Both the position numbers and the translations under genes were made by a program. From the NCBI GenBank assembly GCA_008632985.1, contig QPGO01000058.1, positions 248,001 through 312,000 of the forward strand: a stretch of DNA of 64,000 nt, in the 5' to 3' direction. Shown here piece after piece: positions 5,164 to 64,000 of the stretch; position 1 is the first letter of the stretch, and each line of letters starts with the position of its first letter. The DNA is from Psammoneis japonica (Eukaryota). A model generated the notes under the pieces. That model made no database searches, was not told the origin of the DNA, and saw nothing but the letters and a program-made list of their open reading frames with translations.

Positions 5164-6213
5164 TCACACGCATCTGACACTCAAAAGCTCTCGAATGTTG
5201 CCGATTCCATTGTCATGGACCTGTACTGTGTCTACCTGTAGCCGGTACTCTGAGACGTTTGTGTCTGCATCGTCGGCAGGGACCGTCACTCGAGCAGCGG
5301 CCTCACAAAAGGCGCTCGAGCCACCGCCAACTCCAAAGTAGAAACGCTTCGTGGCCACAAGTCCAACGCCAACGTCCTTTTTTAAATGACGCGCCATCAA
5401 GATAGCCGTATCGTGTGCAGCATCGGCAGTGTACGTAGTCTCTGCAGCAAGAATCAAATCGAACCGTCCATCTGGAGGTAATCGAGGCAGGGATGTGGTG
5501 TCTGTATTCTTATTTTGCTGCTGTTGTGGCAACGAGCCTGCTTGAAGGCTTTTCGACAATTCCATCCAGTCTCCTCCCACCAAGGTAACATGTCTAGCAA
5601 CGATATCCATGAGTTGGTCCGTGTCCTTATCCTCACACAAGCTGTTTGTGTTGAGAACAATGTTGGAAAGCGTAACATCTCTAAGGACAAACTCGTTGTA
5701 TTCCGAAAGGAGATCGAGAACGGTTTGTCGTTTGCCAATTCTTCACCGCTTGAAGATCGACGCATCAACTCTTGCCTCAAAACGAGGCATCCTGGAGAGC
5801 GTGGCCACACCCAAGCTCCATGATATAGCCGTTGCGAGGGATCTCTAGTGCTGTTTGATCGGATTCCGGTGGTACCAACCATTGCTTGACCAGAAATTGA
5901 CACAAATCAATGCTGCACTCCCAAACTTTCAATCCACCTTCATACACACCCGGCAAATGTCGGTTTGCTTGCGTTCGAGTTCTTGAACAATTTCCTCGCC
6001 ATGACTGGTCGTGGTGAATCCGTCTGCAGCGTTGGCGGACAAATAGCTCGACGATTCTCGTGCACGTAGCAGAGGAGTTGAAACGAATTGATCGTTGCAT
6101 AGAGGAATGGTATCATATCGAATGGGTTCATGGAACCGTTCTCGAAGCAAATTCCCAACATTTTCAAGAATGATTAGTGGAGCTTGCGCTCTCGCGTCGT
6201 CGTTGCCGGCCAT
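5164..6213 (-). CDS. Histidine protein methyltransferase (METTL18/Hpm1-like), frameshifted in this sequence
   Basis: PGVYEGGLKVWECSIDL, ELGCGHAL, FDLILAAETTY and ATKRFYFGVGGG spread over several overlapping frames. Confidence 0.85.
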
Positions 6214-6559
6214 TTTTTCTCATGACGTTCAGATTCGCAAAAATCGTTGTTGTTGTTGTCAGCGATGCTAGGATATTCCGGTGGCAAGTCCTCAAAGTTG
6301 AAACGAAATCCCGACATTGTTCTCCAATGATTTGTTTCGCGGTGCGAATGTATTCAACAGATCTTTGTCTCGTCTCTGAAAAAGAAGCTTCCGTCGTCTC
6401 CGCAGAACCATTGCTATGCCATCCAACAAACAAATCTCTCAAATCGAAAATTGAAAATTTGAATGGTCGCGGATGCAGTCTCGGTCGCGCGATCGTTGCG
6501 CCTATAGTTGGTTGGCGTCGGCTTTGTCTGAACATGAGCAGCCGGACAAACCGGAACCT

Positions 6560-8280
6560 GCGCGTAGCTTGCAAGTGAAGACAACGGAAACGATGGAGAA
6601 GGAGGATGAACTGTGGGCACTGTGGGCTCGATTCCTGTCAAAGTTGCAGGGACAGGCTGTTTCATTTGACAGCCTTGCGCCGGGCAGCAACTGGAAAGGA
6701 GTTCTGCTGGCTGAGCTTGAGGTTCGACAACTTGGAAGCAAGGGTGATCTTGCCTGTCGTCGAGAAGAAAAAGGGGCAGCAAGCAAAGACTTTGGAAGAT
6801 GGCATCCTTCCCTTGTTGCAAAACATCAGTTTGTTGCCCCCTTCAGTTCCAAAACCAGGGCAGGACCATGCTCCAGCAGCGACAGCAGCCAGAGATGAGA
6901 ATTTTGGGACTTCCAAAAAACTGCTCACAACCTGCCACACTGTTGGTTTGACTGCGATGATGAAACTGGTCATGTTTCTTGCACAAGTGAGAACAATGCA
7001 GTGGTGCTTGTCAGGTGCAGTGGCCTTGTGAAAGATGTCGCCAAAGCTGTGGGGCTGGACCCCGAAACTTTCACAGGGGGTTGGCGCTTTCGGGTTGCGC
7101 TGCGGGATGCATGGGTTGCAACCTTGAGTGTGACTCCTGTTGGAGTGATCAAGGTAAAACAGCTGGAAGAAGACAAAAATGGCTCTGGCAAGAATGTTTT
7201 GGATGAGTCTGCAGTCCTGGGAGACGAGCTGTGCAACTTTCAAAAAAAAGCTCCCAAACTTTCATGGCGTGAGTCCTGCCTTCGGCATGCGCCAGCCACG
7301 TTTGAGTCCTGGAGATGAGTCTGTTGGATTCCCCAGGTTGATGTGGATGTCAACAAGATTGTCAAGACTTCCAGCCCCTTCCCATTTTTGCAGCCCACTC
7401 ACTGCTCCAAAAAAGAATGCACCGGAGAAGAAAACGTTGCCCCCAGGACTCACTGCTCCCAGCAAGACCAACACCCTGTTTCGCATGACACTGCAGACGA
7501 TGATGAGATCATTGAGGATGGGGATGAGAGAGCAGCAACAACCACAGGACCCTTTGCAGGTCCAAGAATTGCAACAGAGCAGATGGCAGCCATTGCTGCA
7601 GCAGCACTTTGCAAAATGGCAACCAAGGCAAAACAGAGTCCATCATTTGGTGACCCACCATTTGACAGGCTAACAGAATGAATGCTGTTGCATTTTACAA
7701 AGGGAAATTCACAGAGCATTCACTGGCACCACATGGGGCATTTGGAAGGAGAGGGGAAGTGGAGCAAACACACAAATCCAAAGAAGTGCTTGCATGCCAT
7801 TCTTGAAGGCCTGGGGAGGGGCTCTGAGATGGACAGGTTTGGTTGATGTGTGCAAGTTCAGGGAGCCATTTGCATGTTAAAATTTCTTGTCAAGAATAAA
7901 AAAGAAGAGCTGCACAATGATGTGAAACATGAGATGGAGAAATGGAAGGCAGCACATCTGGAATTCAAGGTTTGTCGTGAAATGTGGTGTGGGTGAGACA
8001 CACTGCAGAGGCCTCACTTTGCATTGGTGGAGCCTGCCCACAGGCTAGATGTGTCAAAGCAACACTGCAGGCTAATTCTGCCTCCAAGGGTTTGGTTCAT
8101 TTGGACATGGCCTGGCGAAATATGGGATTGCATGCTGGTGGAGGGGATCATCATGCCGTTTGGTGTTTGATTTGGGTCGAGTCCGAAAGGCGACTGCCGG
8201 CGATGAGCATTGGGTGGAGCACGCAATTGCAAACTTGGAACAAGAGGCGTAGTGGCGCAGTGTCCTGGAATCATTGCTGA
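6560..8280. mobile_element. Degenerate, TpA-depleted probable transposon remnant, family not identified
   Basis: Near absence of TA, TG/CA excess, and broken ORFs with TGA stops. Same composition as the identified TE blocks. Boundaries approximate. Confidence 0.5.
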
Positions 8281-8399
8281 GAAAGTCACGAAAAAGAAGA
8301 GAGGACGAAAGCTCCGCCAACCGTTCAAGTCGAAGAAGAACGCCAAGAGCCCAGGAAATCCAGAGGCAGGATATACCACCTCATCGCTGACGCCTCTTC

Positions 8400-8635
8400 G
8401 CTGACGAGCGCCACAGACTACACTGCTCTCATGAGATTGCTATGGAGCGTATCGGCCAATATCTCAAGGGAACACTCAGTGAATGCCTCATTCTCCGTCC
8501 TTCCGGAGACGTCGACATCGACGTCTATTGCGACTCAGATTTCGCCGGCCTTTGGCGATTTCAAGACGTTCAAGATCCTAATTTGGTGAAGAGCCGAACC
8601 GGATTCGTGATCTCTCTCAGCAACTGCCCCATTAC
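8400..8635 (+). mobile_element. Ty1/copia (CoDi-like) RT-RNase H junction fragment
   Basis: HEIAMERIGQYLKGT...IDVYCDSDFAGLW...DPNLVKSRTGFVISLSNCPI matches the copia RNase H N-terminal motif. Confidence 0.85.
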
Positions 8636-8854
8636 AAGTAATCAATATAATCTAGTAAACGATGAATGTATTCTTTCGCGGCGATTATCGATTGCGCGTA
8701 ATTACGAAGCAGCATCTTGAACTAGTAGGTATGACCCCATTACGGGCGAGCAGCGCCCTGTCATCGTGTCGAGAGATGGACGCGAACATTTGTTCGGGCA
8801 AACGACCGCCGTCTTCAAGACAACAGTCTTCCACTTCATGCAATGCTGATAGAG

Positions 8855-9712
8855 TCACTCGTCTTCCAAACCCAGGGGCTCAATGCTCCACGTACCAATC
8901 GATAGAACTTCATCACCCCAAATTTTACTCCTTTTCACAGTCATCGATTTTGGTGCAATGGAGAGAAACTCTTCTTGCCCAGGCCAAGGCCCTTGTGACA
9001 GCTCATCAGCATCACGCGGGTACACTTCTTCGGCCTTTCGCAGTTTCCTCAACTTTTCGTCTCGTCGCAGCGTTAGTTCGGTCATGTCTTTGTACGCTGC
9101 AATGGTTTCAAGCATCTCTGTCCCATCAAGCCGGCGGTCTCCCGTTTCGTGGGCGACTTGTTTCTCAAGAATGCGTTGCGCTTCCTTGTATTCCGTAAGT
9201 ATAGGCGCGATCTTGCGACTACCAATTTCAAGTTCCTCTTCACGCCAACAATTGGCCGTGAAATATATGCGTTCTGACTTCTCCAACCCAACATCGTTAC
9301 GCTGCACTGAATCCTTCAACTCGATCCAAAAGTCAAGTTTCGATGCGTAACCTTTTTTGCCTGCGGGTAGCTCTATCTTCCAGGCACCTTCATTAAATGT
9401 TGCCATCTGTTGTCCTTCGTTGGTGATGTACGTGGCAGACGATTTTGGTTTCAACAGACTTCCACCGTTCCCCAGAATGGAATCTCTGCGTTTGGATGGA
9501 GACGATTCGATTTCAATGTCAATGGGTAGAACAAGACGGGCCCCGGAGGCACCCCACTCATCCGGCATGTTACATGACGATTCGCGACCAATGTTCAAGG
9601 TTAAACGCCACGACGCAGGTGCCCATGGTGATGAAAAGGCATCGACAGAAAATGAGAAAAGAACCGCCAACAAAGTCAACGACAAATACGTAGAAACAAT
9701 GATTTCTCTCAT
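8855..9712 (-). CDS. Conserved-looking hypothetical protein, probably plastid-targeted
   Basis: Intact 285-aa ORF. Hydrophobic signal peptide ending in VDA-F (ASAFAP-like). Confidence 0.7.
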   Translation of the reverse strand: MREIIVSTYLSLTLLAVLFSFSVDAFSSPWAPASWRLTLNIGRESSCNMPDEWGASGARLVLPIDIEIESSPSKRRDSILGNGGSLLKPKSSATYITNEGQQMATFNEGAWKIELPAGKKGYASKLDFWIELKDSVQRNDVGLEKSERIYFTANCWREEELEIGSRKIAPILTEYKEAQRILEKQVAHETGDRRLDGTEMLETIAAYKDMTELTLRRDEKLRKLRKAEEVYPRDADELSQGPWPGQEEFLSIAPKSMTVKRSKIWGDEVLSIGTWSIEPLGLEDE

Positions 9713-9933
9713 CGATTCGGCATCGCCTGTTTTTCAGCTGGGCTGGGAAGCTCTTTGCTTTTCGTTGTTGCAGTGCATAGTGTCCAGTCTCGTCAGCCGT
9801 CGGCCGTCGGCCCATTCTCACAATTTTTCAATTTTTCCCGCTCGAGCTCTTCTCTGACCACGTGTCACACGGGATTCACGGAAAATCTGACTCCCGTGGA
9901 AAAATTTTGCGCGATCCATCCGCGCCGCGCACC

Positions 9934-11391
9934 CACCCCTGTGCAAGGGAAGAGCATGGATGTGATGGCATGGTGATGTAATTTAGACGTCATCCAAAAT
10001 TTTTTGCTCGTTGGTGAGCGTGCCATCCAGGGACATGACATCAACAGTGTGGAACGCATCAGTCCGATCAAGCCAGGTGGACAGGTTTCCCTGAAATGTC
10101 TCGATTTTAGTCCTCCTGTTGGAGTGGACAATGCACTTGGAAGAAGAAACATTTGTCCCCAACAATGCCAATGGCTGGTTCGAAACCAGTGCAAAAGGAC
10201 GGTCGCTGCAGGTGACAAGGAATGACACATGCCTGTGCCTCATGTCCAATGGTGACGGCCAACAGCACAGGGGAATCTTGAGTCCAACAAATTCCTCCAT
10301 TGATGAAACAATCCGGGTGTTGCAAGTTGCGGTCATGAGTGGGAAGGGTGTCGAAGCGACCGATGGCAGGTGAGCAAAAAAGCGATTGCGTAGCTCCTGG
10401 AATTCAGAACGAAAGGATAGACCAAAACTGACGAAAAGATGGATTTCATCAAGAGCAACAAGCTGCAGCAAACCCTGGTGTGCGGTGCACAGAAGAAATT
10501 GCAACAACCGCTCATTGGAAACAATCAACTGAGGGGAAGCAAACAAAAACACTGTCCCACGAACCGGCAATGAGATGCGCCGCATTCTGTCAAAAAAATG
10601 TTCCATGCGATTGCGATGTTTTGATGTTTCATCCAAATGAAAAGAGGTGACCGGACCGTGTTCTTGTTGTTGTGTGGCTCGTGTCATAATTTTGCGGCAC
10701 TGATCGGAACCCAAGGATGAAAGAGGGATGACAGCGAGGATCATGCCATGGCGGCAGATGCCAACGACATCACGGACAAGGGATTTGCCGCCTCCTGTGG
10801 GTCGGACTGGCAACAATGGCTGGGCTTGTTGATTTTGTGTTGAAGCAAGCAGTTGGGAGCTAACCTCAACCTGCCAACTGTGAGGTTGCTTGCCGAACAC
10901 ATTGATGGAGACGTCGATGAAGGCCTGGGAGGAGGGTGCGGGTGTCGTTGTAGAGTTGGGGTTGATAGAGTCATCTGTGTCAGGCACTGCAACAGTTGAA
11001 AAAAGGTGCAAGTTGTTGCTGTGTAATGCCACCAACAACACACACTCGACAGCGGTAAAAATCACATTGCCTGATGCAGCGGAGTCATTGTGGACACCGC
11101 CAACAGGCGCCGCGTCGTGGGAAGGCGTGGACGACGCATCGCTCGACATCATCATGGTGGACTGTTGTTGACGCGTGTTTTTTGTGTGTTGCGCGAGAGG
11201 TGAAAAATGTTCGAGTGCTGCCCTCAGTGTTTGGTGGCCAGAGAATTAGTGGGGGTGCTATGGGATGGGAGTTATTACTTAACGACATATAATTATTAGT
11301 GCGTATGTGAATATATGCAACTCAACGCATGTGGTGATGTCATCACACACCACACCCACCTGCATTCCATAGCAGCCCTTGCACAGGGGTG
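9934..11391 (-). mobile_element. DNA transposon with 16-bp TIRs and 9-bp TSD carrying a RecQ-like helicase (AcademH-like, non-autonomous)
   Basis: TIRs CACCCCTGTGCAAGGG (9934-9949) and CCCTTGCACAGGGGTG (11376-11391). Identical flanks CCGCGCACC at 9925-9933 and 11392-11400. Confidence 0.85.
9983..11155 (-). pseudogene. RecQ-like SF2 helicase, C-terminally truncated
   Basis: PHSWQ (Q motif), PTGGGKS (I), IPLSSLGSDQ (Ia), DEIH (II), SFRSEF, MTAT (III), CIVHSN (IV). Motifs V-VI are absent. No Tyr in 390 aa. Confidence 0.85.
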
Positions 11392-11689
11392 CCGCGCACC
11401 GTGGTTTCGCTCGCTTGGCGTTTTCTTCTTGTTTGTACAGTGCTGTAGTCGTAAGTGACCAATCTAAAAAAACTAAAAACTACGAATGGCGATGAATGAC
11501 CGTCATAATTGGACGACAGCAGCAAGATCTTTGAAAGATATGCTCTACAAGAAAGTAAGAGAGTAAAATGGGTATTGGAACCTGCCTCTTTGGCTCAAAG
11601 CACATGATTTTGGAGGTAGTAGCATTGTATGTAGTTTGTATTAACATTACCTAGAGCTATTTCTTTATCCCAGATGTGTCGAGGCCTTT

Positions 11690-12737
11690 TTAGGCTGTCA
11701 CAGAGTGCAATAGACTTCCCCATCCATCGTCATCTTTTGGCAATTCATCTAGATCGTCCATGTTAAAGGGCTTTCCCATCAGTGAAAAGATTTCTTGGAG
11801 CACAGTTGGATCATCCGGGAGAGCCAAGCAATCTTCTGAAGAATCGATGGCTTGACCTCTTCTACTACTACTTGTTCCTTTTTCATAATAGGATGTTGCG
11901 GCTGGACAGCTTCGTGGGTGGTGGGGAAGAAAGATCTCTCGCCATGATTGTATGGCATGGATCCAAGTTCGGAGTTTCTCCGTCTGCTCTGGAACGACCT
12001 TTCTTGTTGAAGCAACGTATTTTGTCGGTTTCCAATACTGGGCATGGAAGAGCGACGAGAAGCCTTTGCCATGACGTCGAGACTCTTGCGCCTGTGCATT
12101 TCGTACTCGGCATCTGTCATGGAGTAGAAATTCGGCTCGTTCTGAGGATTGCTTGCCCTTCGGACTCGAGTGCCCTTGACCTTTGTTCGGATAATGGAGT
12201 CACACAGCTCGGGCTTTCCACGTTTAAACAAGAAGTGATAGTACCCGCCCTTGTCTGGACCTTCTGTAATTCTTTGGAAACCGTACTGTAGGAAAAGATC
12301 AGAAGAAGATTGTAAGCATCTATAGAGGTCGAGGGAGGCGTCGCTGAAAGTAAATCTTCGCCAACACTTACCAAATTCAATTGGCGCTGAAAGCTGGACC
12401 ATTTTGTTTGTCTAAAGAGGTTTGGCATAATGTGAATAACAAACTCCTTTGGCTTGTGAACAACGAAGCATTTTCCATGGGGCTGCCAAGAAACGATGTC
12501 TGCGTTCCCGTGCTCTCCGGAAGTTTCGAGCATAAGATGAAGCAACCGAGGAAACGGTATTCTTCCTTTTCCTGTCTTTGTAAGGGAAGACCTCCGCTGA
12601 GCCCGCTCGGGTTCCGCAAAGTCCCAATCGGGTACCAGAGAAAGTGATTCTGGGGAAAGAAAGTCGTTCAAGTCGTCAAGAGGCTCGCAATCAATGTCGA
12701 AGATATCTCTGGAGACGCTCATGTCTTGGCAATCCAT
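11690..12737 (-). CDS. Heat shock transcription factor (HSF DNA-binding domain)
   Basis: FPRLLHLML...IVSWQPHGKCFVVHKPKEF...FRQTKWSSFQRQLNL|YGFQRI with GT-AG intron 12286-12371. The C-terminus probably continues through a frameshift near 11820 to a stop at 11690. Confidence 0.92.
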
Positions 12738-14089
12738 GCCTGTTCGAATGAGGAGCCCAATTTGTCAAACGTTTGTGACAATGCAACCATTTTTTCAAGT
12801 TGTGGCTGAAGTTATAAGGCTCACAAATGCTTTGACCGCAGGAGTTTAAGTACGACTATGAGGCTTGCCGTGTCTTGAAGAGACGACTTGAAAGATTTGT
12901 GAGTGAATGGTCTGAGAGTCGTGTCTTTTTGGTAGGTGAAGCTCAAGCTTTTTTCAAAGTTAGTCAATCTATTTGGGTCTGAAAGACGCGTTTGCGTGGT
13001 ACCGTTTGATTCAGTGAGCGTGGTTTCGGTCATTCACCAAAATTGGCGAAACAAAATGGTCCGTTGCATTTCTACGCTTTTCAGTACTAAAGTCGTCAAA
13101 TGTCCCTTCCATCTTCGATCAGTTTGGACAGATCATGTGCCAAAATAATTAGGAGAAACAGAATGTATCATTTATGGATGGCGATTCAAAGACATTCAAC
13201 GATAAGTGACCTACAGTGGCATCCTAGCGACCATCACGGTTGAAAATGCCATGGGCTGGATCTTAATGCCGAGAACTCATGATGGTAACATAAATACTAA
13301 AGAAATACAAACATTCAGCGTTTATTGTATGAAATGATCAGTCACGCGTGTAGTCACGTTCAGAATGTCTCCTTTGACATAAATTCCAACATTTTGAAAT
13401 TTTGCAGTCACTCTCCTCCTCTTTTATTGAGGTCACACGACTGAAAGGCACTGGCTTCGAAAAAAATGTGGACTCTTGATATCCCCTCAGCGGAAGATTA
13501 TTACTACTTCACGCGCTCATCTACGACTAATTGATTTGCGGTTTGCTCCTTCCTTCCCGGGATCAGACTCTCACAAGAAGATATGGTCCGTTTAACACAT
13601 CAACGCCAGACACATTGCTCTACTTATGGCGAATGCAAAGCCGAGAAAGGGGCGGTGACCTGTGTCATTCATTTTATTCTTTCTCACTCTACGAGCCAGT
13701 AAATATGGGATGATCGAAACAGCTCAAACGTAACATGGGAGGTCTAGAAACGCCTTACCTTGCACACTCCAGCACATTATTGGACGAATGCCGTATTAGC
13801 AAACGATTCTTCGAATTCATGACCGAACGAAGGGACGTCCATCAGGTCCAAGCCTCGTCAACCTGAAGTCCAAATTAGGATGAGCATACCTAAGCCATGA
13901 ATTGGAAATTCAATCATTCTCATAGGATGCGCCCGCATCTTGTTAATATGCGTCGCTCCCTTATTTGAAATAAGCTAGTAATGCCTTATTCTCTCTACAG
14001 TTTGCAGCTGGATCATCGTTGATGTGCCACTTAGAGTCCAGCATGTACAGTGTCCAGAACAAAGTACTTATAACATATCAAGTTTAAGC

Positions 14090-20997: not shown

Positions 20998-22666
20998 CTA
21001 GGGTTCTTCAATATCATCAGTGCCGCTTGAACCGTCAGGATTCATCAGCTTTTGTTTCTGCAGTGCCAAACCTGCTTTGCGCTCCTGAAGATCGTTCATG
21101 TGGTTATCGATCTCGCCCTCAAGTTCTTCAATTTGATCGAGAGAGAGGTCATTGTATTCTACGTCCTTTGGCAAGAGTGGAACAGCCGGGTACAAATGGC
21201 CAGCCTCGACGCTTTCTTCTTCGTCTTCTTTGCCGCCCTTGCGCGCAGCACGTTCCTCGGCAGTGCCAATGTAGACTTCGTCACGCTTAAAGCCTCGGAC
21301 CTTCTTGTCAATCTTGGCAAGGAACCATGCTCCAGAGCAAATACCGGTGGCCTCCAAAAATAGACAGATGCGGAGGAACAGGTAGGTGATGGGATTTGAC
21401 AAAAAGGCAATGGGAAAGGCAGACGCGACAAGCTGCCACGAGATGGATCCGAGAATGGTAGTAATGGTGGCACCAAGGAAACCAGTTTCAAAGAGTTCCT
21501 GGAGTCCATCGCTAACACCCCACAGGTTGCCCTTGCCCTCGTCCATCGAGACAGTGGTGACACGAGAGATAATGAAGAAGCAAGACACGACACTGAGCTG
21601 ACGGCCAATCATGAAATTGGGAAGGTTGTGTCCCCTGCCCTTGTAGAGGAGATCGCAAGTCATCTTGGCACACTTGGCTCTTCCACGCTCGTCCTTGGTA
21701 AGCTTGGCGACGGCAAAGAAGGCAATCTGCATACCTTCGAGCATACCAACGACAGACATGAGGAGGAAGAACAGAATCACGGCAACTGCCTCGGGAACAC
21801 CGTCCCACATGGTGGTTTGTCCTTGGAAAAGAGCAGATAGGGTGACTGCCAAGGCAAAGCCGAGGACGACAAACGAGACAAGGACACGGAACCAGAAGAA
21901 AAGAGATTGACCGGTGCTGCGCGGAGGCTCCTTGGATTCGATGGGCTTTCCAGCAAGGTATCCAACACAAATCTGGATGAAGTAGGAGAAGTGCATGAGA
22001 CCGGTGAATTCAATCGCCCTGGCAGTGTAGAGCGTAAAGAGGTTTGCATAATCGTTGAAGTAGTCGAGCATACAGAGCGATGCGTTGACCTGCGACTGCA
22101 ACTGTCCGACCTGTGCCGTAAAGAGGATCATGGCGAATCCGGTGACAAGGAAGATGTCGACAATCCACTTAGGCAATCCCCAGAGTTCAGCACCTTCGAT
22201 AGGGGCTCCACACTTGTTGATGAGGAAAACGATAAAGATGACCATGAACTGACGGCCCATAAGGTAGCGATCGAGGTTATCTCCCTCTTGGGTCATAGCG
22301 TTGCCCTTGTAAGCGATCGGGTGGGTGTCCTTGTAGAGCTCACGGTCAATCGGGTGAAGACCAACCAACGAAGCCTGTCCGCCCTCGACGAACGAGAGCC
22401 AAATCAACATCACCCAAAGGATAATAAAGGCAAGAGCAGGATGGTATTGCTCGGACCACGCCGTCTGCCTTGTGAAGATCAAGCCCATAACGATCACCAG
22501 CGAGAACACAAGGAGAATGGTGGAGTAGAACATCTTGAAGATGCTGAGAGCTTTGTGCAAGTCCGATTTCTCTGTAAGGAGGAACGAGCGAAAGAGCGAC
22601 CGAATGAGCAAACAACGCAGAGGAAAACAACAAGCTACGTACGAGAGAGACAGGCTTACCACTCAT
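20998..22666 (-). CDS. SIT: Silicon transporter
   Basis: About 10 TM segments, EGGQ, GRQ, EGMQ and GRQ motifs, CMLD motif and C-terminal coiled coil. Exon 1 ATGAGTG (22666-22660), intron 22572-22659, giving MSEKSDL. Confidence 0.97.
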
Positions 22667-23299
22667 GGTTGAACAAACTTTTCTTTGTTTTGGTTGTAAT
22701 GTACCGTACTAAAGGAGCTTGTCGATCAAGCAACACAGAAAAAGAAAAAGTGAGACGATTTTTGCGGATTGGAGGCGATTGGGATTTTGAGCGGGAAACG
22801 CTCACTCCGCCTGCCACGTCCGTTAATTTTTCTCGTGTAACGTTTTTCGACGAATTATTTATGAAAATGTGACGTTACCGTTGGTAGGATCTTGGTTCCT
22901 ATCGCAAAATTTTGTCGTTACGGGTTTTGTACGACAATCTACGAGCTTAAGATTAATACAAAGGAATACACATACATCTACTATCATTCTAATGCACTCA
23001 TGTCGGTTTCTGTCAATCCCATAATGTCTCTACAGCACGTACGGTTCGTACAGTATGGAGTGTCATTGGTTTGTCCGTGGTACTTTACAGTATGTTTTGT
23101 ACGATAGCACTCAAAATATGAAAGATATTCAACTCCGAAAGTGCAAGATTTTGATGGACCGGGCACAGGCTCAATTCCCATGACTGGCCCATTTTTGCAT
23201 CATTTGGCACAATAAACTCCTTCAAAATCGAAGGTCCGCAACATAAAAGGAGCCAAGGACATTAGAACCTTGCTCACCAGGCGTGTGGTCGATTGGGAC

Positions 23300-25800
23300 G
23301 CAGACAAGCACAAGATGTTGGTCCAAGCGACTGAACCACTGCTTGAGAGCAATCTAAAAACCACCCAGAAGGAGGAGATCATGCCAGAGCAGCACGCCAA
23401 GACATCAAACAAAATGGCACTGCGAGGAAACCCCCAAGAGGAGCAGTCAGGTGCATTTCAGAATGTGAAAAAGGTGGAGTGCTTGCACCCAGTGCACCAT
23501 GTTTGAGGTTCTGCAGACCCGAGGATTCCGGAGGAAGACCAGGGTGTCATGATCACTGACAGCGCCATTGAGACCATCACACGATGACTGTCCAGGAGTG
23601 CAGGCCTTGGCAAAGCTGATGCCAATGCAGTGTTGCAGTGGCTGCTCCGCTGCAGAGAAGCCACTAGATTGCTTCGAGAAAAGCGCTGTGCATCATGTTC
23701 GCAAACTGGCTGGCCAACGAATTGCCCCCATGGGCTGCCTGTCGCGCAACCATGGCAAAGCAACTCATCACGCCAGACAAAAATCTGGGCATCCATCCGG
23801 TCAGCATGGGGGGGGGGCATGGCAGAGAGCCACAGCCAAAGCTGTTCTCCCAGTTGCTGGAGCAGAGGCCAAAGAGGCCTGTGGGATGGATCAGCTGTGT
23901 GCAGGTCTTGAAGCAAGCATCGAGGGCACGCTTCACACACTGGGAACAGCACAAGTTCCAGGATGACTGCATCTTTCTCTTTGTTGGTGCCTCCTCTGAT
24001 GGATTCAATGAAGAGAACTGGGTTCCAATGTTGCACAACGTTGGACACTTCTGGCCATCTGGCACAAGGTTTGCCTTCAACTGCTGCAAGCACTGCTAGA
24101 GCATCCACATCATCTGCAAACACTTCGGTGTGGCAGCCTGTGGATTGAGTCTTCTCCCACCAGTCCACAAGCTCAATGAAACCTTCATGGTGTGATGACT
24201 CTCCACCGCAGCCAGGAAATTCAATGTCATCTGGGAATTTTTCTTGACTCTTTGAGCCGAAGGCCCCAAACATGGATGCTGCCCTGCTGACAACAAAAAG
24301 AACAGCATCCCAGCAGTCTCCCAGAATGCAACCCAGAACATGCCAGGGTGCACTTTGGAAACCTCGGCTTTGCCATCTGCTCAGGCAGCTGCTGCCATGG
24401 AGGCTTCATTGGAGAGATGGACGCATGCAACCAATGGCCAGTGGAGAAAGCCAAGTCATGCACCTTGGTCATCCAAGGACTTGCAAGTGTTGCATTCACC
24501 ACCCACAGACTGCCGTGCCGGTCTTCAAAAGTCCCTGCAGCACCAGTGGCAGTGTGTCCAATGCATGGCAAAGGACTGTGGAGAATCCTTCACAGAAGTG
24601 GAATGCATGATCCAGCACCAATTTCTTCCAGCATCAATTGGCAAGACCTTGGCTGACAATGATCCAAGATCAGCCCTGTCTGCCCTCCCAATCAAATTTG
24701 CAAAGCTGTCCATCCCTTGTCCAATGGAGTCTGCACCCAAAAACCATGAAGCAAGTGCTCTTGCATGCTCTCATGTGATGGACTCACTTTGTGGCTGCTC
24801 AGATTTTGCTTCAGCAGTCCACAAGGGCACCATGTGCAAAGTGAAACAAGAAGCAGCCATTGGGAAAGCCAAGATGCACAAGGAGAAACTCAAGACAACC
24901 CTCCAGGCTCTGTCTGACCTCAAAGCCAGAGCTGTCAAGCACAGCACCAGCACTGGAGCATGCCCATCAGTGTGCTCATTGATGCTAAATGGCACAGAAC
25001 TTTCTTGTCTAGAATTCCACCATGCACTTCACCTGTGATGCAGCAGCACTCCCCCCAACCTCCCTGAGCACTGCAATGGATGCTGATGCAAATTCTCTGT
25101 CAACCATGCCCTGCAGTGCAAGAAGGGCAGCACAGTCACATCATGACATGACGACATGATGTGTGATGACCTTTGTGACCTAATTGGAAAGGCCTTCAAG
25201 CCTTCCTGTGCATGCAATGAACCCCTCATCAACCCTGTTGGTTGCACCTCAGGAAGCCCAGGTGCCTCCAACAACTCACAAGGCACTGCAAACTCCAACA
25301 TGTCCAAGGATGGCAACTGCACAGATCTTCTGTCTCACCAAGGATGGCAACCGCACAGATCTTCTGTCCAAAGGATTTTGGGATTGGAGGACAGACACCA
25401 TCATGGATGATGTTTGTGTTCCAGACACGGATGCAGAATCACACCTGTCCAAGACACCAGAACAAGTTCTGGAACAACACAGATGAGAGAAAAAGTGCAA
25501 GCACCTCAAGTCCAGCCTTGAGCAATGTCGCCACTTTGCTCCCTTTGTTGCATCATGCAATGGGCTGTTTGGCAAAGAAGCCAAGGCATCACTGAGCAAA
25601 ATCTCTTCCAAACCAGCTGACAAATGGCAAAAGCCTTGTTCAGAGGCATTTGGCTGTGTCAATGCAAGAAAGAGCATCGCTGTGGTGCGGGCGACTCACC
25701 ATTGCCTCAGGGGATCATGCATCCCTTTGTCCCAGATCAGTTCCAGATGTCCCCAGCCAGTGGGAAGATGGCACTGGTCTGTCCCTGTGCTGGCACCAAA
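23300..25800 (+). mobile_element. Degenerate non-LTR retrotransposon, CRE-clade-like (RT + restriction-like endonuclease)
   Basis: DKNLGIHPVSMG, EACGMDQLCAGLEASIEG, ASSDGFNE, WCDD (YxDD-like), EGPKHG, GGFIG, LPIKF, zinc knuckle CNGC..FSVNHALQCKKG..HDD, RLE-like DLLSKGFW...DTDAES...EKK and RATHHCLRGS. Many TGA stops and frameshifts. Confidence 0.85.
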
Positions 25801-28800
25801 TGACACCCTGCTTGGGCCAGACCACCACTGCCAAGAACAATTGCCAAATGCCAACTCATGGACAACCTCTGCTCATGGCCCAATGCAGCCAAAACACCAT
25901 CACAAATGCAACAAACAGTGCCAGATCTCATTTGAACATCGCGCACTCAGATGACAGAAACCACACGCAAAATCCACCCCTCATTTGCATGACCACATCA
26001 ACCACATGATGCCCATGTTTTCCCATTTTTTCCCAAATCAAAGGCTGAGCACACACAAAACATTTATTTTTGTGTGTGCACTTGCCTCTTTTGATTTTCA
26101 AAACAATCAAATTTGAAGGAGGTCAAATTTGAAGGAGTCTAATGTGCCAAACTGTGCAGACAATTGATCTCTCTTGCATGATGGATTGCAGATCACCTGG
26201 GGCTGGAACAGGCTGCCATCATTTTGCCAGCCCAAGCGCTCTGCTGGGGACTCCCTTAACAACACTTTGTGAGATTCCATCAGAAGTTCCAGCAAAAAAC
26301 ATGCTGACAAAACAGCACAGAGAAACAAGCACCCCAACATGCCCACACCCCCACCCATCAAGTTTCTTGCTTGCACCAGCAAAAAGAATGCAGTCAGAGC
26401 TTCAGCATTTTTCAGTCTGCAGGCTCTGTTTGTCTTTTTGTTCATTGCAAATGGACAGGTTGATGATTTCAGTGGCTTTCAAGTGCAAAGTTCTTGCAAC
26501 CTTGTCTTGCGCCACTTCCCCCCCCCCCCCCCCAAAGAGAAGTCAACACATGAGTGGCACCATTGTCCCCTTGCATCTGAGTTGGTCTTTGTGGCCATCA
26601 TCATTGATGTGTCTCAAAGATCAAGTTTGGCCACCTTGTGCACTGACTCTGTGTGATGCAAGACTGAAAAAATCCTTTGAATGCAACAGCTCCATTTTGG
26701 CAAGAACAAGTGTGCATTGTTTCTCCATTTCCTTCATGGCGCATGTCATGCCCTCTTTGTGTTGTTGCTTGGCACCACTTCTGCAATCACAAAGTTGAAA
26801 GAAGTTGTCAAAAGCAACCACACAACCACCGCGGTGATTTGTGCAAAAAACACATCATGCCACTCCATGTGAAACATGTCCACAAAAAAAAGATTTCAAT
26901 GGGTGCTTTGACATGCAATGTGGATTTGAAGAACACCAACTGGAGCCAGAAAAAATGGCTGCCAGCAAGGTGATGGGTTGGTTTCAATTGGAACATTTGG
27001 CAGTGAAGCCAGTTTCCAAAGTTGATCCTTTTGACACACATGGTCAACCCACTGTGAGCCTGAGCTTGCTGCTGCATGCTGCTTCTTGGCTGCACCACCA
27101 CCAACTGCTTTGCAGCCTAGAGAGCTGCCCTTGTCATTTCTGGCTTTTGGGACCTGCACTCTTCCTGCCTTGTGCAGATGATGCTTGTTGCAGCTGTTGC
27201 TGGCAAGAAGGCCAAATCATCTTTTGAAGAGTTCACACGCAGCGGCATGCAGAGCACAGTGCTCTTTTGTGCAACTTTTGTGCCTGGTGTGTCTCTTGCC
27301 ACTGTCACTTTTCCCTTTGCTGCAACCTTTGCAACTCTCCTCAATGACAAGAGGACCACAATTTGGGGAAGGCACCAGTGCCGGTGCTTTGATTGTTGTC
27401 TTTTTGATCATTTTGTGCATTGTCAGTGCATGCTTGAGGGTGTGCAAGTTGCCTTTCATGCCACTGCCAAGATCCAAAAGTCTGAGTGTGGGGAGAAAGA
27501 AGGGTGCTTTGTTCCCACAATGACCTGTGGCCTCCTTTGCTGTGCAAGGGCAAGGCAAGCACCCTTTCTGAGCTCATCATTGGATGTCACCTCCTGGTTT
27601 TGCTGTTTGTGGTGATGTGTGTGTTTTTCATTGCCTTCATCACTTCTGTTAAGATCAAGGAAGGAGAAGAGAGCATCTCAAGTGTTCTGATTCTCTCCAA
27701 GAGAGCTCTTCTTCAGAGTGCTGATTTGCTTGGAGCGCTCATCATCCTTGTCACCACAATCATTGCCTCTGTGTCATGGCAGCTTGTGGCCTCCACCTGT
27801 CATCAGAGCAGCAATGGCAAGTCTCCAAATGATGTGGAGCTCTCTGCAAACCACCAGCGACAGTGACAACACCACATGATGTGCTGGCATGAAAGAGCAG
27901 AGGAGTGGATGCATTCTTGGTGAAAGAGGATGACCCACCCAGTCACTGCTGTCATTGTGCAGAACAATGTGGAGCAGCCAGCAGAGACAAAGAAACTTCA
28001 GGGTCTGGAGCACCAATCTTGCCTTGACATTGGCAGGAAGGGCCATCAATCCTGCAGACAACAGTGGCAACCAGCCTGAATCATTGCAGACAACTTGCTT
28101 GCAGGCACCACAAAGACACAGCAGACTTGATGTTCTGTGGACAAGGAGGTGGTTGCAAGATCCATCTGGGAATCCACAGCTGGTGCATGTCTTTCACTTG
28201 AGGTGCATCAGCAGCAGCATGGTTTGGAATCTGCAAATGCCACCACACATTGGAGCTCAATCAAGAGGTCACAGCATCAAGACAAAGCAGCTGTTGCCAA
28301 GAGCACATGATGCATGGGTGTCACAAGCAGCAGTCATCATTGGCAACAATTCTTCAGGCATGGGGCACCCCCCAGTCACAGGAGGCATGTTCACAGGCAG
28401 GTGCAGGTGCTTGCATCACTGGGTTGTGAAAAACAAATCCTTTGGAAGCAACCAACATGCAGTGGGTGAGCAGCATCCAATGAGCAGCTGCACAAAAAAT
28501 GCTGTGGCTGCAAAAGTGCCACAACTGCAACCAAGCTCTGTGCAATTGTGTTGCAGCTGCATTTTTCACAGACACCACAAGGTGAAGCAGCCAGATGGCA
28601 TGGGGACTTGAGGGTCAGTGCACACTGGCAGCAGCCACAATGGGTGATGCAATGTGATTGACATGGTGCACTCACACAAAGCTGCAACAAGAGATTGTCT
28701 GTGCCAGCTGACAATGGATTTGTGCAATTGAAGTGCACACCAGGATTGGAGCAGCTGCGTGCGCGCCATGCACCAATTGCAATGATTGCTTTTGTGTGAT

Positions 28801-30170
28801 CTGGCAAATCTTGAGAATTGAGAGCAAATTGGATGTTGGCTGCAGTCAAGCACCCACCTTGAGAGGCAAGATGCAGAGTCATTGCCCACAGGAGTTTTCA
28901 CCATGAGAGAAGATTGCTTGAAAATCAACCACACAACAATGGGGGCAGCCAGTCCTTCTTGGGGATCTCTTGTTGAGAGTGGAACAAGGTTGTTGAGGAT
29001 GCAATCATGAAACAGCTCAGTGACACAATTCTCAGTTTGAACACACTTGAAATCATCAAACAAACAAACAAAGCTGACAATTGAGCCACCAGAAATGCTG
29101 CTCAGATGTTTTTCACAGCTTCAGGGGTGCACAAGAGTGCACGCCAGAAATGCTGCCTGAGTTCTGGTGAGAGCACCAGCAATGACATGACCTTTCCAGA
29201 ATTGCAAGCTGCCATGTGGTGCAAGTGCACAAAAATGTTGTTCCAGTGACTTGGAGAAGGCCAGCATTGTTTGGCAGCCCAGAAAAGATGCAGAGATTCA
29301 ATGACACACAGGAAAATCCAAAACTCACTTGTGATCAAAATGAGAGCGCAAGCTTGTTTGGCTTGCAATGTGACAAACAAAATGCAGCAGCCAACTCAAA
29401 GATGCAAGAGGACAATTGCAGGGCCACAACCTGTCAGAGCAGTGATGGCCAAGTTGAAAAATGATGTGGAACTTCCTGCAAACTGGCAGCATCAGAGTGA
29501 TGGCGACACACGTGTTGTGCCAGCAAGAAAGAGTGAGAGAGGCAGATCTGCTTGGAAAACAACATCTGCTCAGCTGTCTGGGTCTGACCATCATCTGTGG
29601 AGTTGGCATGCTGACACTGCCTTTCCACCACTGCCTTCCTTTCCAACCCCTTCAGATGCACTTTTCTCTGTGTCTGTCTCTGTGCTGTTGAAGAGGCCAC
29701 TGGCAGCAGCACCGCCTCTGTTCTGGAGCCTGGGTTTTTGTTGTGTTGCTCCTTTTCTGTCCACAAGAAGATTGCTGGTTTCAAGCATGATGGGTTCACA
29801 TTGATGCTGCCAGGGAATGTGCGGCAAAGCACATGGCTGACAATGACTCCGCCCACGTTGGAGCCAGCCCCACACTGCGCAAAAGCAAGCCGCCGCCTTT
29901 CAGCAGGATGACACAAAGGACTTTGTGTGAGAGACTGCATTCTTGAAAAAGATGAGGAGCTCAAAAGAGAGATCACCAAATGCATGGATGAGATTGAGCA
30001 GCACCAAACAGATTTGGAAACTCAATGCCAGAAGCTGTTGGCTGCTGCCGGGCTCAGTGGTGGGCTTCTTTGGCAGCACTGGGGATGTGCGACCCCCGCC
30101 CCCAAGAGAGAGAGTGCTGGGGCAAATTTGCACAGCATTTGCCTTGTCTTCATCACAGTGGCACTGAATT
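25800..30170. mobile_element. Further TpA/CpG-depleted degenerate repeat DNA, families not identified
   Basis: Continuous with the CRE-like copy. Almost no TA or CG, and only spurious Cys/His/Gln-rich ORFs. Confidence 0.55.
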
Positions 30171-44869: not shown

Positions 44870-46248
44870 TTACATGTCCCTCGCATAACTGCCCCATACA
44901 TCGACCAAATATTTCTTGACCTCGTCGTAAAACACATGCTCTATGGATTGTCTCACAATCAGTTTTATATCCTCTTCATCAAGATCCCAGGCCAAGGCCA
45001 ATAGAAGTAACTCTTGCGTAGAGTCAGTGTTGAAGACACCCGAGTCGTCTGTCGATACGCTAAAGGGATGCTTCTTTTTCAACCAGTGCTTCAGCTGTGG
45101 ATGACGTTTCAGGCCGTGAACCAAATCGCCGTCCACGTGTGTCGCCAATTCCAGAGTCATAACATTGCTAGTAGGACAGCACTCGACTGGTATTTTAGCC
45201 TTTTCCAACTTGGCATTCAGTGAAGGCGGCAAGAGTAGGGCATGCCCCACTCGATCTGGTCGAAAGTTCAGGATGGCTTCGTTTTCCTTGTACGCATTGA
45301 TATGCTCGGGTGTTTTGCTTTCCGCCAGCTCATAACAGGGTAGTTCTCCTAAAATGAATCATCATACACACGCGCGTTACGGTGGTGAGTCGATAAATAA
45401 TAGACAGTGCTGGTCAATGTCAACCGAACACACGCAAACGCACCTGAATGAACCGTCACCCGTAGTCCCGCCTCTCGCGCCAGCTGTAAGGCTGGCTGAA
45501 AGTCCGAAAAATCATTCTGAATGTTTCGATATGAAAAACAATAAAGAATAAGTCCTAAAGCAAGAAACCCATGTTTGGTACAGTAATGAATCCAACTACG
45601 ACACACTCACCTTTTGAGGGTTGCCACCGAGGTCAACACCAACAACATGCCGGTAACTGTCTTCGAACAAATCAATAGCGAGTTTGACATTCTCCATAGC
45701 CTCTTCAACTGTACCAGATCGATCAATTGACACAATAAAACGCACTGTTATTGGTAGTGATCTGTCGCCTTTGGTAAAGTTTGTTTGTTGTTCATAGGAA
45801 TCCATTACTTCCAAAATCGTTTCTACATAGTCACGCTTTGTCGCAAGTTTCGTGCCTTTGTTCTTGTGAGTCCACAGCAGACGTTTCGGTGTGGACCGTA
45901 GCTCTAAATACATGACATTGTGTTCTTCAAAGTCTTCAAGAGCTTCATAAGTGATGCGGCGGAGCGCCTGTATATCGTTGACGCAGCCGGGATCTCTGCA
46001 AACATTTCAAAGCAGTCGCGAAGCGATCTTGGTTTGGTATTGTACAACATGCAAGCAGACGTCTTTGAGTGTGGTATTGTGGAAACATCGAAATGATGAC
46101 TAGGCAATGTCACGTTCCGTTCTGCTGCCAGTTCAGACAAAGTTTGTTCCCTAATGCAGCCATTCAGGTGAGCGTGCAATTCTATCTTTGGAAACCGCTT
46201 TATAAACACATGCAACCTGTTCTCCTTTTCTTCTGACGTCTCCATCAT
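44870..46248 (-). CDS. Adenosine deaminase-like protein (ADAL / N6-methyl-AMP deaminase family)
   Basis: KIELHAHLNG, YLELRSTPK, GVDLGGNP, VTVHSGE, RVGHA, VECCPTSN and STDDSGVF. Two introns (~45350-45443, ~45545-45610) and frameshifts near 45900-45990. Confidence 0.9.
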
Positions 46249-46499
46249 GAGTGATTGCGTTAAAGGTCTTGGAACTTGCTGCCTGTGTATTGAACCAGTG
46301 CGGTCGCCAGCAAACAGCAGCAGCAGAGGAGTCGTCGGCACTTTCATCGGCCGCCACCAGCAGTGCGGCCATTGCGTGACGGGTCGTGACGGTCGCGAGC
46401 TCTGCGTTTGATTGAAAAATTAAATCCAGCTGTAGCTCGTGGTGGGAGGGGCGAAGGCAGGGAAGAAGGCATCTCTTGATCAACAGTCATTAAAGTTGT

Positions 46500-48830
46500 G
46501 TCTTGTACATTGTTCAATGCAAATTGAGGTCCACTCCAACCACAACTCAAAGGAAGCTGCATTTGAGAGAGCCACATGCCTTGTTCATCATCAACAACAT
46601 TGAAAGTCAGGGCGGCCACAACCTCCCCTCCTGTGTGCTCCTCAAGTCAAAAAGACAAGAGAACAAGAGTGCCGGCCGGTTTTGTGGCTCAAGTCAAACC
46701 AAAGAATCAGCTGCCATTTTTTATTCAACCACCATGACAATTTGTCAAACACTGTGAATTCTGGGTGACTCGTGCTGTCTCTTGCTTTTTTTGCGCGATT
46801 GCTCCGACCTGTGTGCCCCGCTCTTTCTTGTGTGTTTGTTGCTTCTGGCAGGGGCATGCAGCACAAGCAAAAACAAAGCAAAAAGTGCAGTGCTCTTCCC
46901 ATTGGCTCAACCAGAAAATGCAGCAGTGTTGAAGCATTCCCCACAAGCAAGCTCTCAGCTGGGTGGCTGCTGGAAATGCCCCGCCCCCCTTTGCTGGCTG
47001 TGCCAACAGCAAAGCGATGTCCCACTTGAGATTTGATTTGGGCCTTTGATGATCACACAATGGCCTGCCTCCAGCAACAATGGGAGTGCTTGATGTGGAA
47101 GGAAGATTGGAAAAACAGTGAGTGCATGGACAAATCCAGGAAAGCAGTCGTTGTCATGCCGTGGTTGGGTGCATCATGTCAAAGGGCCCGACTTCAACCT
47201 TTGAAAAGCAGCACAGCACAAGTTCAGCAAGTTGTGCGTGGGTTGGCATTTGGTGGCCAATCTCATCTGCTCTGCAAGAATGCAACAGACATCAAGGACA
47301 AATTGCAGCATCCTTCTCAGGAGCACATGGAGGAGCCCAAGTGTGACACTCTGATTTCTTGCACCACATTTTGCGCCATTTGCAAGATGATGGGTGCTGA
47401 CGTTGCAAGTGCATGTGGACAGTTGATTGCTGCCAGAACAAGGAGGGTGCAATGACTGTCCCTGACATTGAGGACAGTGCTGCTCCTCCTTGTCCCACCA
47501 CTGCCAGCCAGATTCGAAGAAGCAATCCACAGCCAGAGAGTCAATGTCCAAAGAAGAAGGCAAAGATGTGGCATGAGCAAGGAACTTGGAACATCTTGGT
47601 GGCCTTGTTTGCCCCCCAACAGTGGCAACAGTGTTGCCTGCACTTAGTCTGTTGTTTGTTCTGTTCCTTCACCTTCTTTGAGACACAAAAAAGAGATCCT
47701 GTGCATTGACAAAGAATCTCATTGCATTGCTTGGTTGCTTTGGACCGATGACCTTTCTGTGTCACCAAACCATCTCTGATCCTCACTGGCTCCAAGACTT
47801 CACTGACAGCAACTGCGAATCTTGGCATGGACGTGCTCAATCGTTGCACCCTGTTTCCTTGGAGAGCGGTGCCTCCGCCCAGCAGCATGGCAATTCGAGA
47901 GTGATCTCAAAATGTTTGCTCAACTTGCTGTTCATCGTGTGGGTTTCTTTGCCCTGTGCGTGATTTGCGTGCACTCTGCTGAAGTTGTCATCCTCAAGAT
48001 CTGCATCATGATTTTGACTGCCTGGACCTTGGAACTTGGAATGCCCCCGGTTCGCGTCATTTTTGGCCGTCCGATGTTTCGATGCCTGCATTGCGACTCT
48101 GGCAAATGACAAGGACAAAAGGGTGAAGTGCTGCTCGTGCCGACTGCTTGTCAACGCCGCACTGCCCGCGTGCATCGTGCTCCACAGCGTTTTGTTTCGC
48201 GAATTTGGGAGGCCTGCGTCTCACTGGTGCTTGTTGTGTGTGGCGTTCAGAGAGGAGCCGCCAGTGGGGCACATGCCGCCGCTTTCACAACGACCGAAAT
48301 TTTGGTTGCCTTTCTAGCGACCCTTCAATTTCATGCTGGGAGGACACTGGTTGGTCTTTGTCACCGGAGACATGTCCAAATGTGCAGCAATGGATGACCC
48401 TGATCTTCAAGCCGGGGCGCGAACAGCGCATCAGGCGACATGGCTGGCTTTCTAGCCTCTTCAAGAGTGTTTTGATTCGGAACACACACAGCTCTCTCTT
48501 CGGCCGCGTGGCAACTGCCACAGAGGTGCGTTTGTGCAAAGAAATCACAAGGAGTCCAAAGGCATCACGTCATGTACAAGTCAATCAGCCCTCGTAAGAA
48601 TTTGGCTGCTCGGAGGTGAGCGGACGCAAACGAATTAGCCCAAAAGCATCACATGTCAAAACCAATCAGCCGCTTGGAACTCGCATGCTTCCATGCCCAA
48701 ATTGTCACAATTTTTGATTCTCTCCAAATTGCAAGCCTTGTGTTTGGTCATCACTGCTTCCACTGCTGCTGGTTCGGACGCCAAGAAGAAAGAGGATGCG
48801 CCTTTCCTGTGAGCGAGCCCAAGAAGGACG
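46500..48830. mobile_element. Degenerate TpA-depleted probable transposon remnant(s), family not identified
   Basis: Almost no TA over ~2.3 kb. CpG is partly retained in 47800-48550. No recognisable protein. Confidence 0.5.
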
Positions 48831-49291
48831 ACAAGGCACAGGTGGTTCCAAGAAGGACGACACGGTGCAGGCATTAAGACGGTTTCGAAAGATGCGGAGA
48901 CGAGCCGAAAGCTCCCGAGGAAAACGACAAGGAAGAAACCGACGAGGAAATCGTGACGAGCCATACAAAACGAGAAACCCATGAAAACTTGTAACTTCTC
49001 TCCCTAAACAAGTCGAGAGGAGTGTAATTAAGTGGTCAAAGCACTTTGTTATGTGAAATGTCCAAGTTTCCATCGTCCGGGAGAGGGTTCAAGTTGGCGA
49101 ACCGACTTTGGCGATTTGTGTAGAAAACATGCTAAGCTCTACGTACATAGAATCTGGCCCACTTTTGTACCCGTACCACCTTAAAAAAAACTTTTCTCGC
49201 TGATGGCTCCCGCTGTCCATGACGATGCACGATGCCACGGACAGCGGTAGTTATGTGAGCTGCAATTACAGCTAAGCCTGTGTTGCGTAGC

Positions 49292-51929: not shown

Positions 51930-52086
51930 NNNNNNNNNNNNNNNNNNNNNNNNNNNNNNNNNNNNNNNNNNNNNNNNNNNNNNNNNNNNNNNNNNNNNNN
52001 NNNNNNNNNNNNNNNNNNNNNNNNNNNNNNNNNNNNNNNNNNNNNNNNNNNNNNNNNNNNNNNNNNNNNNNNNNNNNNNNNNNNNN
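51930..52086. other. Assembly gap
   Basis: Run of N. Confidence 1.

Positions 52087-52140
<54 letters not shown>
52087..52140. repeat. (AC)n microsatellite
   Basis: About 27 AC units directly after the gap. Confidence 0.98.
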
Positions 52141-52142
<2 letters not shown>

Positions 52143-55100: not shown

Positions 55101-55449
55101 GGCATCGTCGTCATCCATTGCCCCCAAGTCATGCTCAGTTTCAAGTCCCGGGGGAATCTGGTCAAAATTTCTGCGGGATTCACCACACCATGAATGGAAC
55201 CTTCATGGTCAGTCACGTTTTCCAAAAAAAAATCCATGGTGAGAAAAACTCAAAGCAAGCCAATGCCAATGAAGTGCGAGGCACTCGATCCCTGCAGCGC
55301 GCAGCACATCTTGCTGCACCTTCATCAGCATTGCTGTTGGAATCGGAATCTTCATTGTCTGGTGGGTGAAGTGTTTCATGATCATCGTTGTTGACTTTCT
55401 TTGTGCCGGTGGGAGGCTTGCTCTCATTGTTCTCACTTTTTTCAAGGTT

Positions 55450-59600: not shown

Positions 59601-59946
59601 CATCCACAGCATCTCCAGTTCTGACGGCCAGATCTCCTGGACTTTCAGTCATGTGTGCAACTAGGCAGTTGGTGTTCAGCAAAGCCATCATGATGACTGT
59701 GCACTGCTTGCATGTCTTGTGATTACATTGTGTTGCTTAATAAAGTTAAACGAAAATAAATGGCAATCAACCTAGGTAGAGAGCAGGATGGGTTCGGAAC
59801 GGGCTTTCCTACCTAGTTAGAGTGTTGCCGAGATGCACTAATAGCCAGAGTTTTCGTGTATTTTGTAGTGAAGTCTTTCATGACAGTTGAGATAGCCACT
59901 CCAAATAAAATTCGAAGACTTGATGACTACTCTTGCACATAAAAAG

Positions 59947-61278: not shown

Positions 61279-61499
61279 TACTCAGTCGCACACCACCAAC
61301 ACCTTCTACGGTTATCCTAATGGGTTCAGCCATGGCCACAGATGTTCTTTATGTTTGAGTTCACTCCCGGCTGGCTTGAGGTGAGTTATTCGTTATTCTC
61401 AATTCGTTCTGCACGAGATCTGATCGGGTGAAGGACGGACTGGAGAAAGGGGCCCGGACGGAACGAAGCAAGAGAAGGGGGGTGACAGAAATGGAATGA

Positions 61500-63960: not shown

Positions 63961-64000
63961 CTCCCGGATTTAGATTCGGATTCCGCTCACCACCTTCCAA

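Follow-up and report, generated by a model that had tools for sequence, protein, structure and literature searches.

AcademX transposons encode an XPG nuclease. AcademH transposons are reportedly known from animals and fungi, the two groups named in the title of Kojima 2020 (Mob DNA 11:15). According to the relevant passages of PMC10045372, AcademH elements generate target site duplications (TSDs) of 9 or 10 bp, AcademX elements generate TSDs of 3-4 bp and have a nuclease instead of a helicase, and the length of the TSD seems to be related to which of the two enzymes is present. Parts of PMC10799480 also treat AcademH as a lineage of the Academ superfamily. A DDE transposase is likewise combined with a RecQ helicase in KolobokH, as described in sections of PMC9587614.

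The window analyzed here is a 64,000-nucleotide stretch of the genome of the diatom Psammoneis japonica. At 9934-11391 it contains an element that, at a rough probability of 0.85, is a cut-and-paste transposon of the AcademH type, in a rearranged and non-autonomous copy that lies beside an empty allele and was likely inserted by the transposase of a full-length relative. Its family resembles AcademH in having a DDE transposase with a RecQ-type helicase, terminal inverted repeats (TIRs) and a 9-bp TSD. It differs from AcademH, compared here by description with Kojima 2020 and Repbase outside the comparison, in its diatom host and in that both genes start from a duplicated cassette of ~100 bp, with helicase leaders copied onto the transposase side; the window copy is moreover non-autonomous, unlike AcademH as described. 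With AcademX the family shares Academ-type transposase motifs but not the short TSD or the nuclease.

In our literature search no paper turned up that reports Academ elements from diatoms; Repbase and Kojima 2020 with its supplements, which lay outside that search, may bear on the range of the family and on the cassette. Nothing on Academ-type features was found in PMC12730594 and PMC12210899, and PMC5576322 describes subtelomeric helicases and not this element.

Ends, target site and alleles of the window copy

The preliminary description had reported perfect 16-bp TIRs, a perfect 9-bp TSD, a total length of 1458 bp and a truncated RecQ-like helicase as the only cargo, all of which hold (Table 1); the helicase ORF is the only long one in the element. 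A 10-bp reading of the TSD was rejected because the ends of the family fix the terminal G. The exact TIR occurs 21 times in the genome, in comparison with 0 occurrences of a reversed control, and together with the filled and empty junctions in short-read contigs this places the element beyond chance.

Table 1. Features of the element and its surroundings, in positions of the window.
Feature	Positions	Strand	Remarks
Predicted host gene, 285 aa, family unassigned	8855-9712	-	insertion in its upstream region
Left 9-bp TSD	9925-9933	.	CCGCGCACC; single copy retained in empty allele
Left 16-bp TIR	9934-9949	+	100% complementary to right TIR
End A remnant, 72 bp, without cassette	9934-10005	+	end A normally precedes the helicase gene
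Truncated RecQ-like helicase ORF, 390 aa	9983-11155	-	ATG at 11155, stop at 9983; DEAD match, tree
Deletion junction in T-run (microhomology)	10000-10005	.	T-run common to end A and helicase coding strand
Cassette of ~100 bp, predicted promoter and 5' UTR	11156-11256	-	5' of start codon; at both ends of full-length elements
Switch zone	11212-11256	.	sliding assignment; helicase-side below, transposase-side above
End B	11257-11391	-	normally precedes the transposase gene; TpA steps retained
Right 16-bp TIR	11376-11391	-	100% complementary to left TIR
Right 9-bp TSD	11392-11400	.	CCGCGCACC, perfect match to left TSD
Host HSF-type transcription factor gene	11690-12764	-	PF00447, E 9e-13; ends ~290 bp from element

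Among the short-read contigs of run X1, the filled left junction is present at a depth of 44, and a 568-nt contig bridges the internal deletion junction with zero differences. The empty site, which the earlier text had suggested looking for in the other haplotype or other strains, is found in the same run as a joint that skips 1467 bp, i.e., the element plus one TSD (depth 49.8, short side 45 nt). It is absent from the assembly and was seen in the X1 contigs only; the assembly may have been made from the very sample behind run X1, and contig depth in that run is not an allele count. A heterozygous insertion is the simplest reading of the filled and empty junctions. The other haplotype in X1 also shows five substitutions and three small deletions at window 9804-9853, in the upstream region of the host gene.

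From the ATG of that gene (9712) to the start of the TSD, which lies upstream of it, the distance is 212 bp, in agreement with the earlier figure of about 200 bp. The predicted protein has no Pfam match and no good Atlas match; the gene has a paralogue on C97 with 67% DNA identity, and the N-terminus of the protein, a hydrophobic leader followed by Ala-Phe, resembles a diatom plastid-targeting presequence. Fragments at window 8207-8720, where there is no Pfam match, we take to resemble the RNase H region of Ty1/copia elements. Elsewhere in the window there are silicon transporter genes, intact at 21190-22551 and broken at 27025-27797 within an eroded block. A total of 24 silicon-transporter matches, the best near 697 bits, point to a diatom host.

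The transposon family, its transposase and its helicase

A genome search with the TIR, also suggested in the preliminary description, recovered further TIR-bounded copies, of which the full-length ones encode a DUF6589/Academ-type transposase. There are at least 56 element DNA matches in the genome (40 of 73 candidates were scored). The family ends are CACCCC, and copies range from 235-bp MITEs to 7.7 kb. Among 22 end-paired copies, 14 have an exact 9-bp TSD, one has a TSD with one mismatch, five have TSDs with two and two have none, the pair listing having taken in pairs with at most two mismatches only; no partner end was fixed for C3, C80, C226, C27, C130 and C180/C418. The TSD is 9 bp without consensus, and the termini are CA..TG. 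No 6-mer near 20 insertion sites rises above shuffles (the best is present at 12 of the 20, and 12 or more were reached in 13 of 200 shuffles), and CACGTG is found at only one of the 20, so that the motif-guided insertion noted for fungal elements is not apparent here. A G or C stands immediately before the TSD on the end-A side at 18 of 20 sites, which is a weak, uncorrected hint.

In the full-length relatives (6.8-7.7 kb), a DUF6589 DDE transposase either faces the helicase or is fused to it. The two genes face each other in C259 and C112 (6.8 kb). C273:46387-53715 (7.3 kb) and C60:151709-159432 (7.7 kb), both with exact 9-bp TSDs, have transposase and helicase in one frame, a second layout within the same genome; the fused frame of C273 is ~2030 aa long and contains a single stop. 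For the subfamily to which the window copy belongs, no intact autonomous member was recovered among the genome copies, and the longest one, C28 (4.4 kb), is deleted and contains stops. Three other kinds of copies were observed. At C23:116742-122040 there is a transposase-helicase frame of much more distant relationship, which contains two TGA stops and whose ends were not found; C136, C55, C404 and C230 each carry a broken two-gene copy of another subfamily, the four being near-identical, located at or close to the ends of contigs and without fixed element ends; and the window itself includes, at 54080-54349, a sister-subfamily MITE of 270 bp flanked by an exact 9-bp TSD.

The C259 transposase itself matches DUF6589 only at E 0.04. 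Nine of its 10 nearest homologues (26-38% identity) have precomputed DUF6589 assignments and 6 of the 10 pass the cut-off of that family; among further long homologues, 21 of 36 match it at E <= 0.001 (of 2322 representatives found). A profile of the clade recovers 335 representatives at E <= 1e-30, and the C273 protein as a homologue query returned one match. The Atlas neighbours are DUF6589 clusters of molluscs and basidiomycetes (0.91-0.93, with low recognition). The conserved motifs DN, GD and G-x-x-H (GDLH) follow the order of the Academ HMM consensus (DN, 'yvvltgd' and 'lvpflgffH') in the parts of PMC5751038 that were compared, a match made by eye on seven parts of the profile text (1, 7-11 and 13) that carries no score, with the last catalytic Glu outside the comparison. 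The literature search found no paper tying DUF6589 to Academ.

The predicted model of the transposase is of middling quality (pLDDT 60.9). Its best fold matches are the P element transposase (6p5a; Z 8.7, rmsd 5.0, 274 aligned) and Hermes hAT (8edg; Z 6.8), which it resembles in an RNase H core with a large helical insertion; at 7-8% identity, this points to the fold class only and not to family membership. Further fold matches include integrases and ISCth4, and Foldseek with the same model returned nothing at E <= 0.001. No nuclease family was detected in Pfam scans of the C259, C273 and C23 proteins.

The helicase of the window copy has a weak Pfam DEAD match (E 6e-5, under the curated cut-off), and both DEAD and Helicase_C are found in the helicases of intact relatives. 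With the helicase motifs numbered I-VI, it retains motifs I, II, III and IV and is missing V and VI, though both are present in C259 and in metagenome relatives; without them it is predicted to be inactive. For clade member P0036, all 37 PDB matches are RecQ-family proteins. In a tree of 36 rows (LG+G4, with long-branch warnings for C23_hel and P0085), the window helicase is sister to that of C28, and all 11 transposon-linked rows fall on one side of a 100/100 branch that sets them apart from the two host RecQ rows and 10 bacterial RecQ rows. The comparison with cellular RecQ that had been called for thus shows no grouping with the two host RecQ genes, in a tree built without fungal or animal AcademH reference rows.

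The preliminary description had named a second possibility, a Pack-MULE-type capture of a piece of a host RecQ gene by a Mutator-like element. MULEs have 9-bp TSDs, with which the TSD here is compatible, and the fold matches include an IS256/Mutator-type chain (Z 6.0). We nevertheless consider the capture very improbable, and that part of the description finds no support. Pfam scans of 46 homologues and of genome copies reveal no MULE family. In the homologue search the helicase matches 26 proteins at E <= 6e-13 (27-50% identity), followed by a gap and then by cellular RecQ at 21-26%, in line with its separation from the host RecQ genes in the tree. In unrelated metagenome contigs, moreover, the helicase is the fixed partner of the same transposase.

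An origin in KolobokH, the other helicase-carrying DDE lineage, is extremely improbable. KolobokH does encode a RecQ helicase, and a Kolobok has been reported from a diatom, but in the same sections of PMC9587614 the TSD is the 4-bp TTAA and the ends are 5'-RR..YY-3', as opposed to the unspecific 9-bp TSD and the CA..TG ends seen here. Taken together, the family ends, the 9-bp TSDs, the DUF6589 transposase and the transposon-linked helicase clade argue for an AcademH-type element and not for a Pack-MULE or KolobokH. The first proposal of the preliminary description, an AcademH-like family member in a diatom, is thereby borne out, as RecQ-type helicase, 9-bp TSD, TIRs and Academ-type transposase are all present.

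It is unlikely that the clade is instead a sister lineage of AcademH, specific to algae or protists and deserving its own name. The low DUF6589 scores and the 335 representatives of the clade profile would suit such a lineage, as would the CACCCC ends and the double cassette, which are common across the clade; however, the helicase, the 9-bp TSD and the motif order fit AcademH and the Academ profile, as far as the passages of PMC10045372 and PMC5751038 describe them.

The duplicated cassette and the end swap

In the parent arrangement, end A is followed by a cassette and then by the helicase, which faces the transposase; a second cassette and end B complete the element. The helicase faces the transposase in 7 of 11 metagenome loci, and three of the 11 (L104, L105 and L109; 6.0-6.8 kb) retain both CACCCC TIRs. 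No TSD is present in the flanks of these three loci, as would be expected if several copies were collapsed. Inside their ends they contain an inverted repeat (107 bp in L104, 103 bp in L109 and 346 bp in L105) that stops at or just past both start codons. Over the 100 nt preceding each start, the two sides of an element are 98, 89 and 88% alike in these three loci, versus 43-56% between elements, and the cassette therefore appears to be kept alike within each lineage. Copies in the diatom genome likewise share cassette-type stretches of ~40 to 670 bp. From its position, the cassette would be the promoter and 5' UTR of both genes. In L104, L105 and L109 each cassette also starts near a TIR-like CACCCC or TACCCC word, possibly a putative inner binding site of the transposase that would allow self-regulation.

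Family members normally have the helicase next to end A and the transposase next to end B. In the window copy, end B leads into the helicase. Of the earlier statement that the copy is internally deleted, the deletion stands but the simple deletion does not, since the interior is also rearranged, with the helicase on the opposite end. Sliding assignment, made without the rows C50_H (wrong upstream ATG), C259 and C28_H, locates the switch at 11256-11212, within the cassette core. On its other side the helicase joins the 72-bp end A at the T-run, and this remnant is 86-93% identical to the initial ~70 nt of end A in seven other copies of the subfamily.

The swapped junction is found at three of nine informative B ends (the window copy, C180/C418 and C6), the other six leading into the transposase. 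The reverse swap, end A followed by the transposase start, occurs at none of nine A ends, all of which lead into the helicase; 3/9 versus 0/9 is a small sample. C6:720758-722635 carries the helicase start on each of its two sides, and behind the one on end B the transposase start is retained. The retention of the transposase's own start behind a copied helicase leader, in C6 as well as in L105, fits copying rather than inversion. C180:100891-101303 and C418:17283-17693 hold a 413-bp end-B remnant that has largely escaped TpA erosion; 99% identical over kilobases, they are probably one locus on two contigs, i.e., two haplotypes, and the C180 copy has lost its other end. End B of the window copy and that of C180 show two differences in 136 aligned columns, a near-identity suggesting that the swapped form probably predates this insertion and was mobile.

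DDE chemistry excises an element at its TIRs, and a 9-bp staggered cut gives the TSD. In this family the DDE transposase would bind the CACCCC ends and insert the element with such a cut, and the window copy would have been mobilized in trans. Ds-type non-autonomous elements arise by abortive gap repair, in which the ends are kept, the interior is deleted at microhomology and the template is switched. A template switch during gap repair is a reasonably likely origin for the window copy as well: a new strand from end B would have switched template in the 45-bp cassette core onto the helicase side, and 1.15 kb of the helicase would have been copied and then joined to end A at the T-run. In contrast to the Ds type, the switch would lie between the element's own two inverted cassettes and would swap the gene that follows an end. 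The helicase would likely unwind end or repair intermediates, which is the least supported step of the scheme.

Within the same family, the copy might instead have arisen in two steps: recombination between the inverted cassettes would have turned the interior around, and a deletion would then have taken out the transposase together with the cassette of end A. The two cassettes form inverted repeats whose cores are almost identical, the switch falls within this core, and one flip plus one deletion yields the identical final sequence. We regard this route as possible but doubtful: a flip would also produce the end A-transposase junction that none of the A ends shows, and it sits poorly with the two helicase starts of C6 and the transposase start kept behind one of them. 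The two sides of C6 share the same mutant state at 8 of 10 ancestral TpA sites, which is a weak hint of copying.

TpA erosion and implications

After its formation, the window copy would have been eroded by mutation of TpA to TpG or CpA. Across the helicase sequence the observed TpA count is 0.13 of that expected; for the end-B stretch the ratio is 1.18 (12 seen, 10.1 expected). It is 0.02-0.29 in 18 other element copies, in comparison with 0.42-0.60 in four host genes. Of 23 differences between the window copy and C180, 10 are changes of TA to CA or TG in the window and one is the reverse. No Tyr is left in the 307-aa core of the window helicase, and of 13 columns with a conserved Tyr in homologues, 11 show Cys or His in C259. 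In a predicted 84-nt intron the donor is GCAAGT in C259 and GTGAGT in C112, both derivable from GTAAGT. Mutant states agree between the window copy and C6 at 17 of 33 sites, C28 at 17 of 35 and C50 at 15 of 36, that is, about half the time, indicating that each copy eroded independently; on these counts, copying of the window helicase from an already eroded assembled copy was rejected.

Blocks of the window at 6001-8000, 23001-30000, 46001-49000, 52001-60000 and 61001-64000 also have TpA ratios of mostly 0.0-0.3, versus ~0.4-0.9 elsewhere; CpG is often low there too and CpA/TpG is raised, an erosion resembling RIP in reverse. TpA hypermutation of foreign DNA, with changes of TpA to TpG or CpA like those seen here, is described for Bigelowiella natans in parts of bioRxiv 10.64898/2026.01.13.699255. 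There it was measured directly in integrated viral DNA, whereas here it is inferred from copies of a DNA transposon. The word diatom is absent from the main text of that preprint.

The window copy is a dead passenger, but it extends the helicase-bearing Academ elements to diatoms (with Repbase and Kojima 2020 outside the comparison). Three findings are new: the empty allele, the mapping of the end swap and of its bias in one direction, and the conservation of the cassette in intact elements outside this genome. The duplicated cassette and the one-way swaps record sequence exchange between the two ends of the element. We tentatively suggest, as a reading with less than even odds, an undescribed diatom branch of Academ in which one duplicated promoter-5' UTR cassette drives both genes and its two copies stay alike through recurrent one-way copying from the helicase side to the transposase side. 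This copying would be a by-product of the element's helicase acting in gap repair, the window copy being one product caught in the genome.

The insertion site, 212 bp upstream of the start codon of a host gene, comes in a filled and an empty form, a natural setting in which effects on the promoter and TpA hypermutation can be compared between alleles. The role of the helicase could be probed in intact relatives, for instance L104, and if the one-way copying is indeed the work of the element's helicase, that copying would provide a direct assay for the function of the AcademH helicase.
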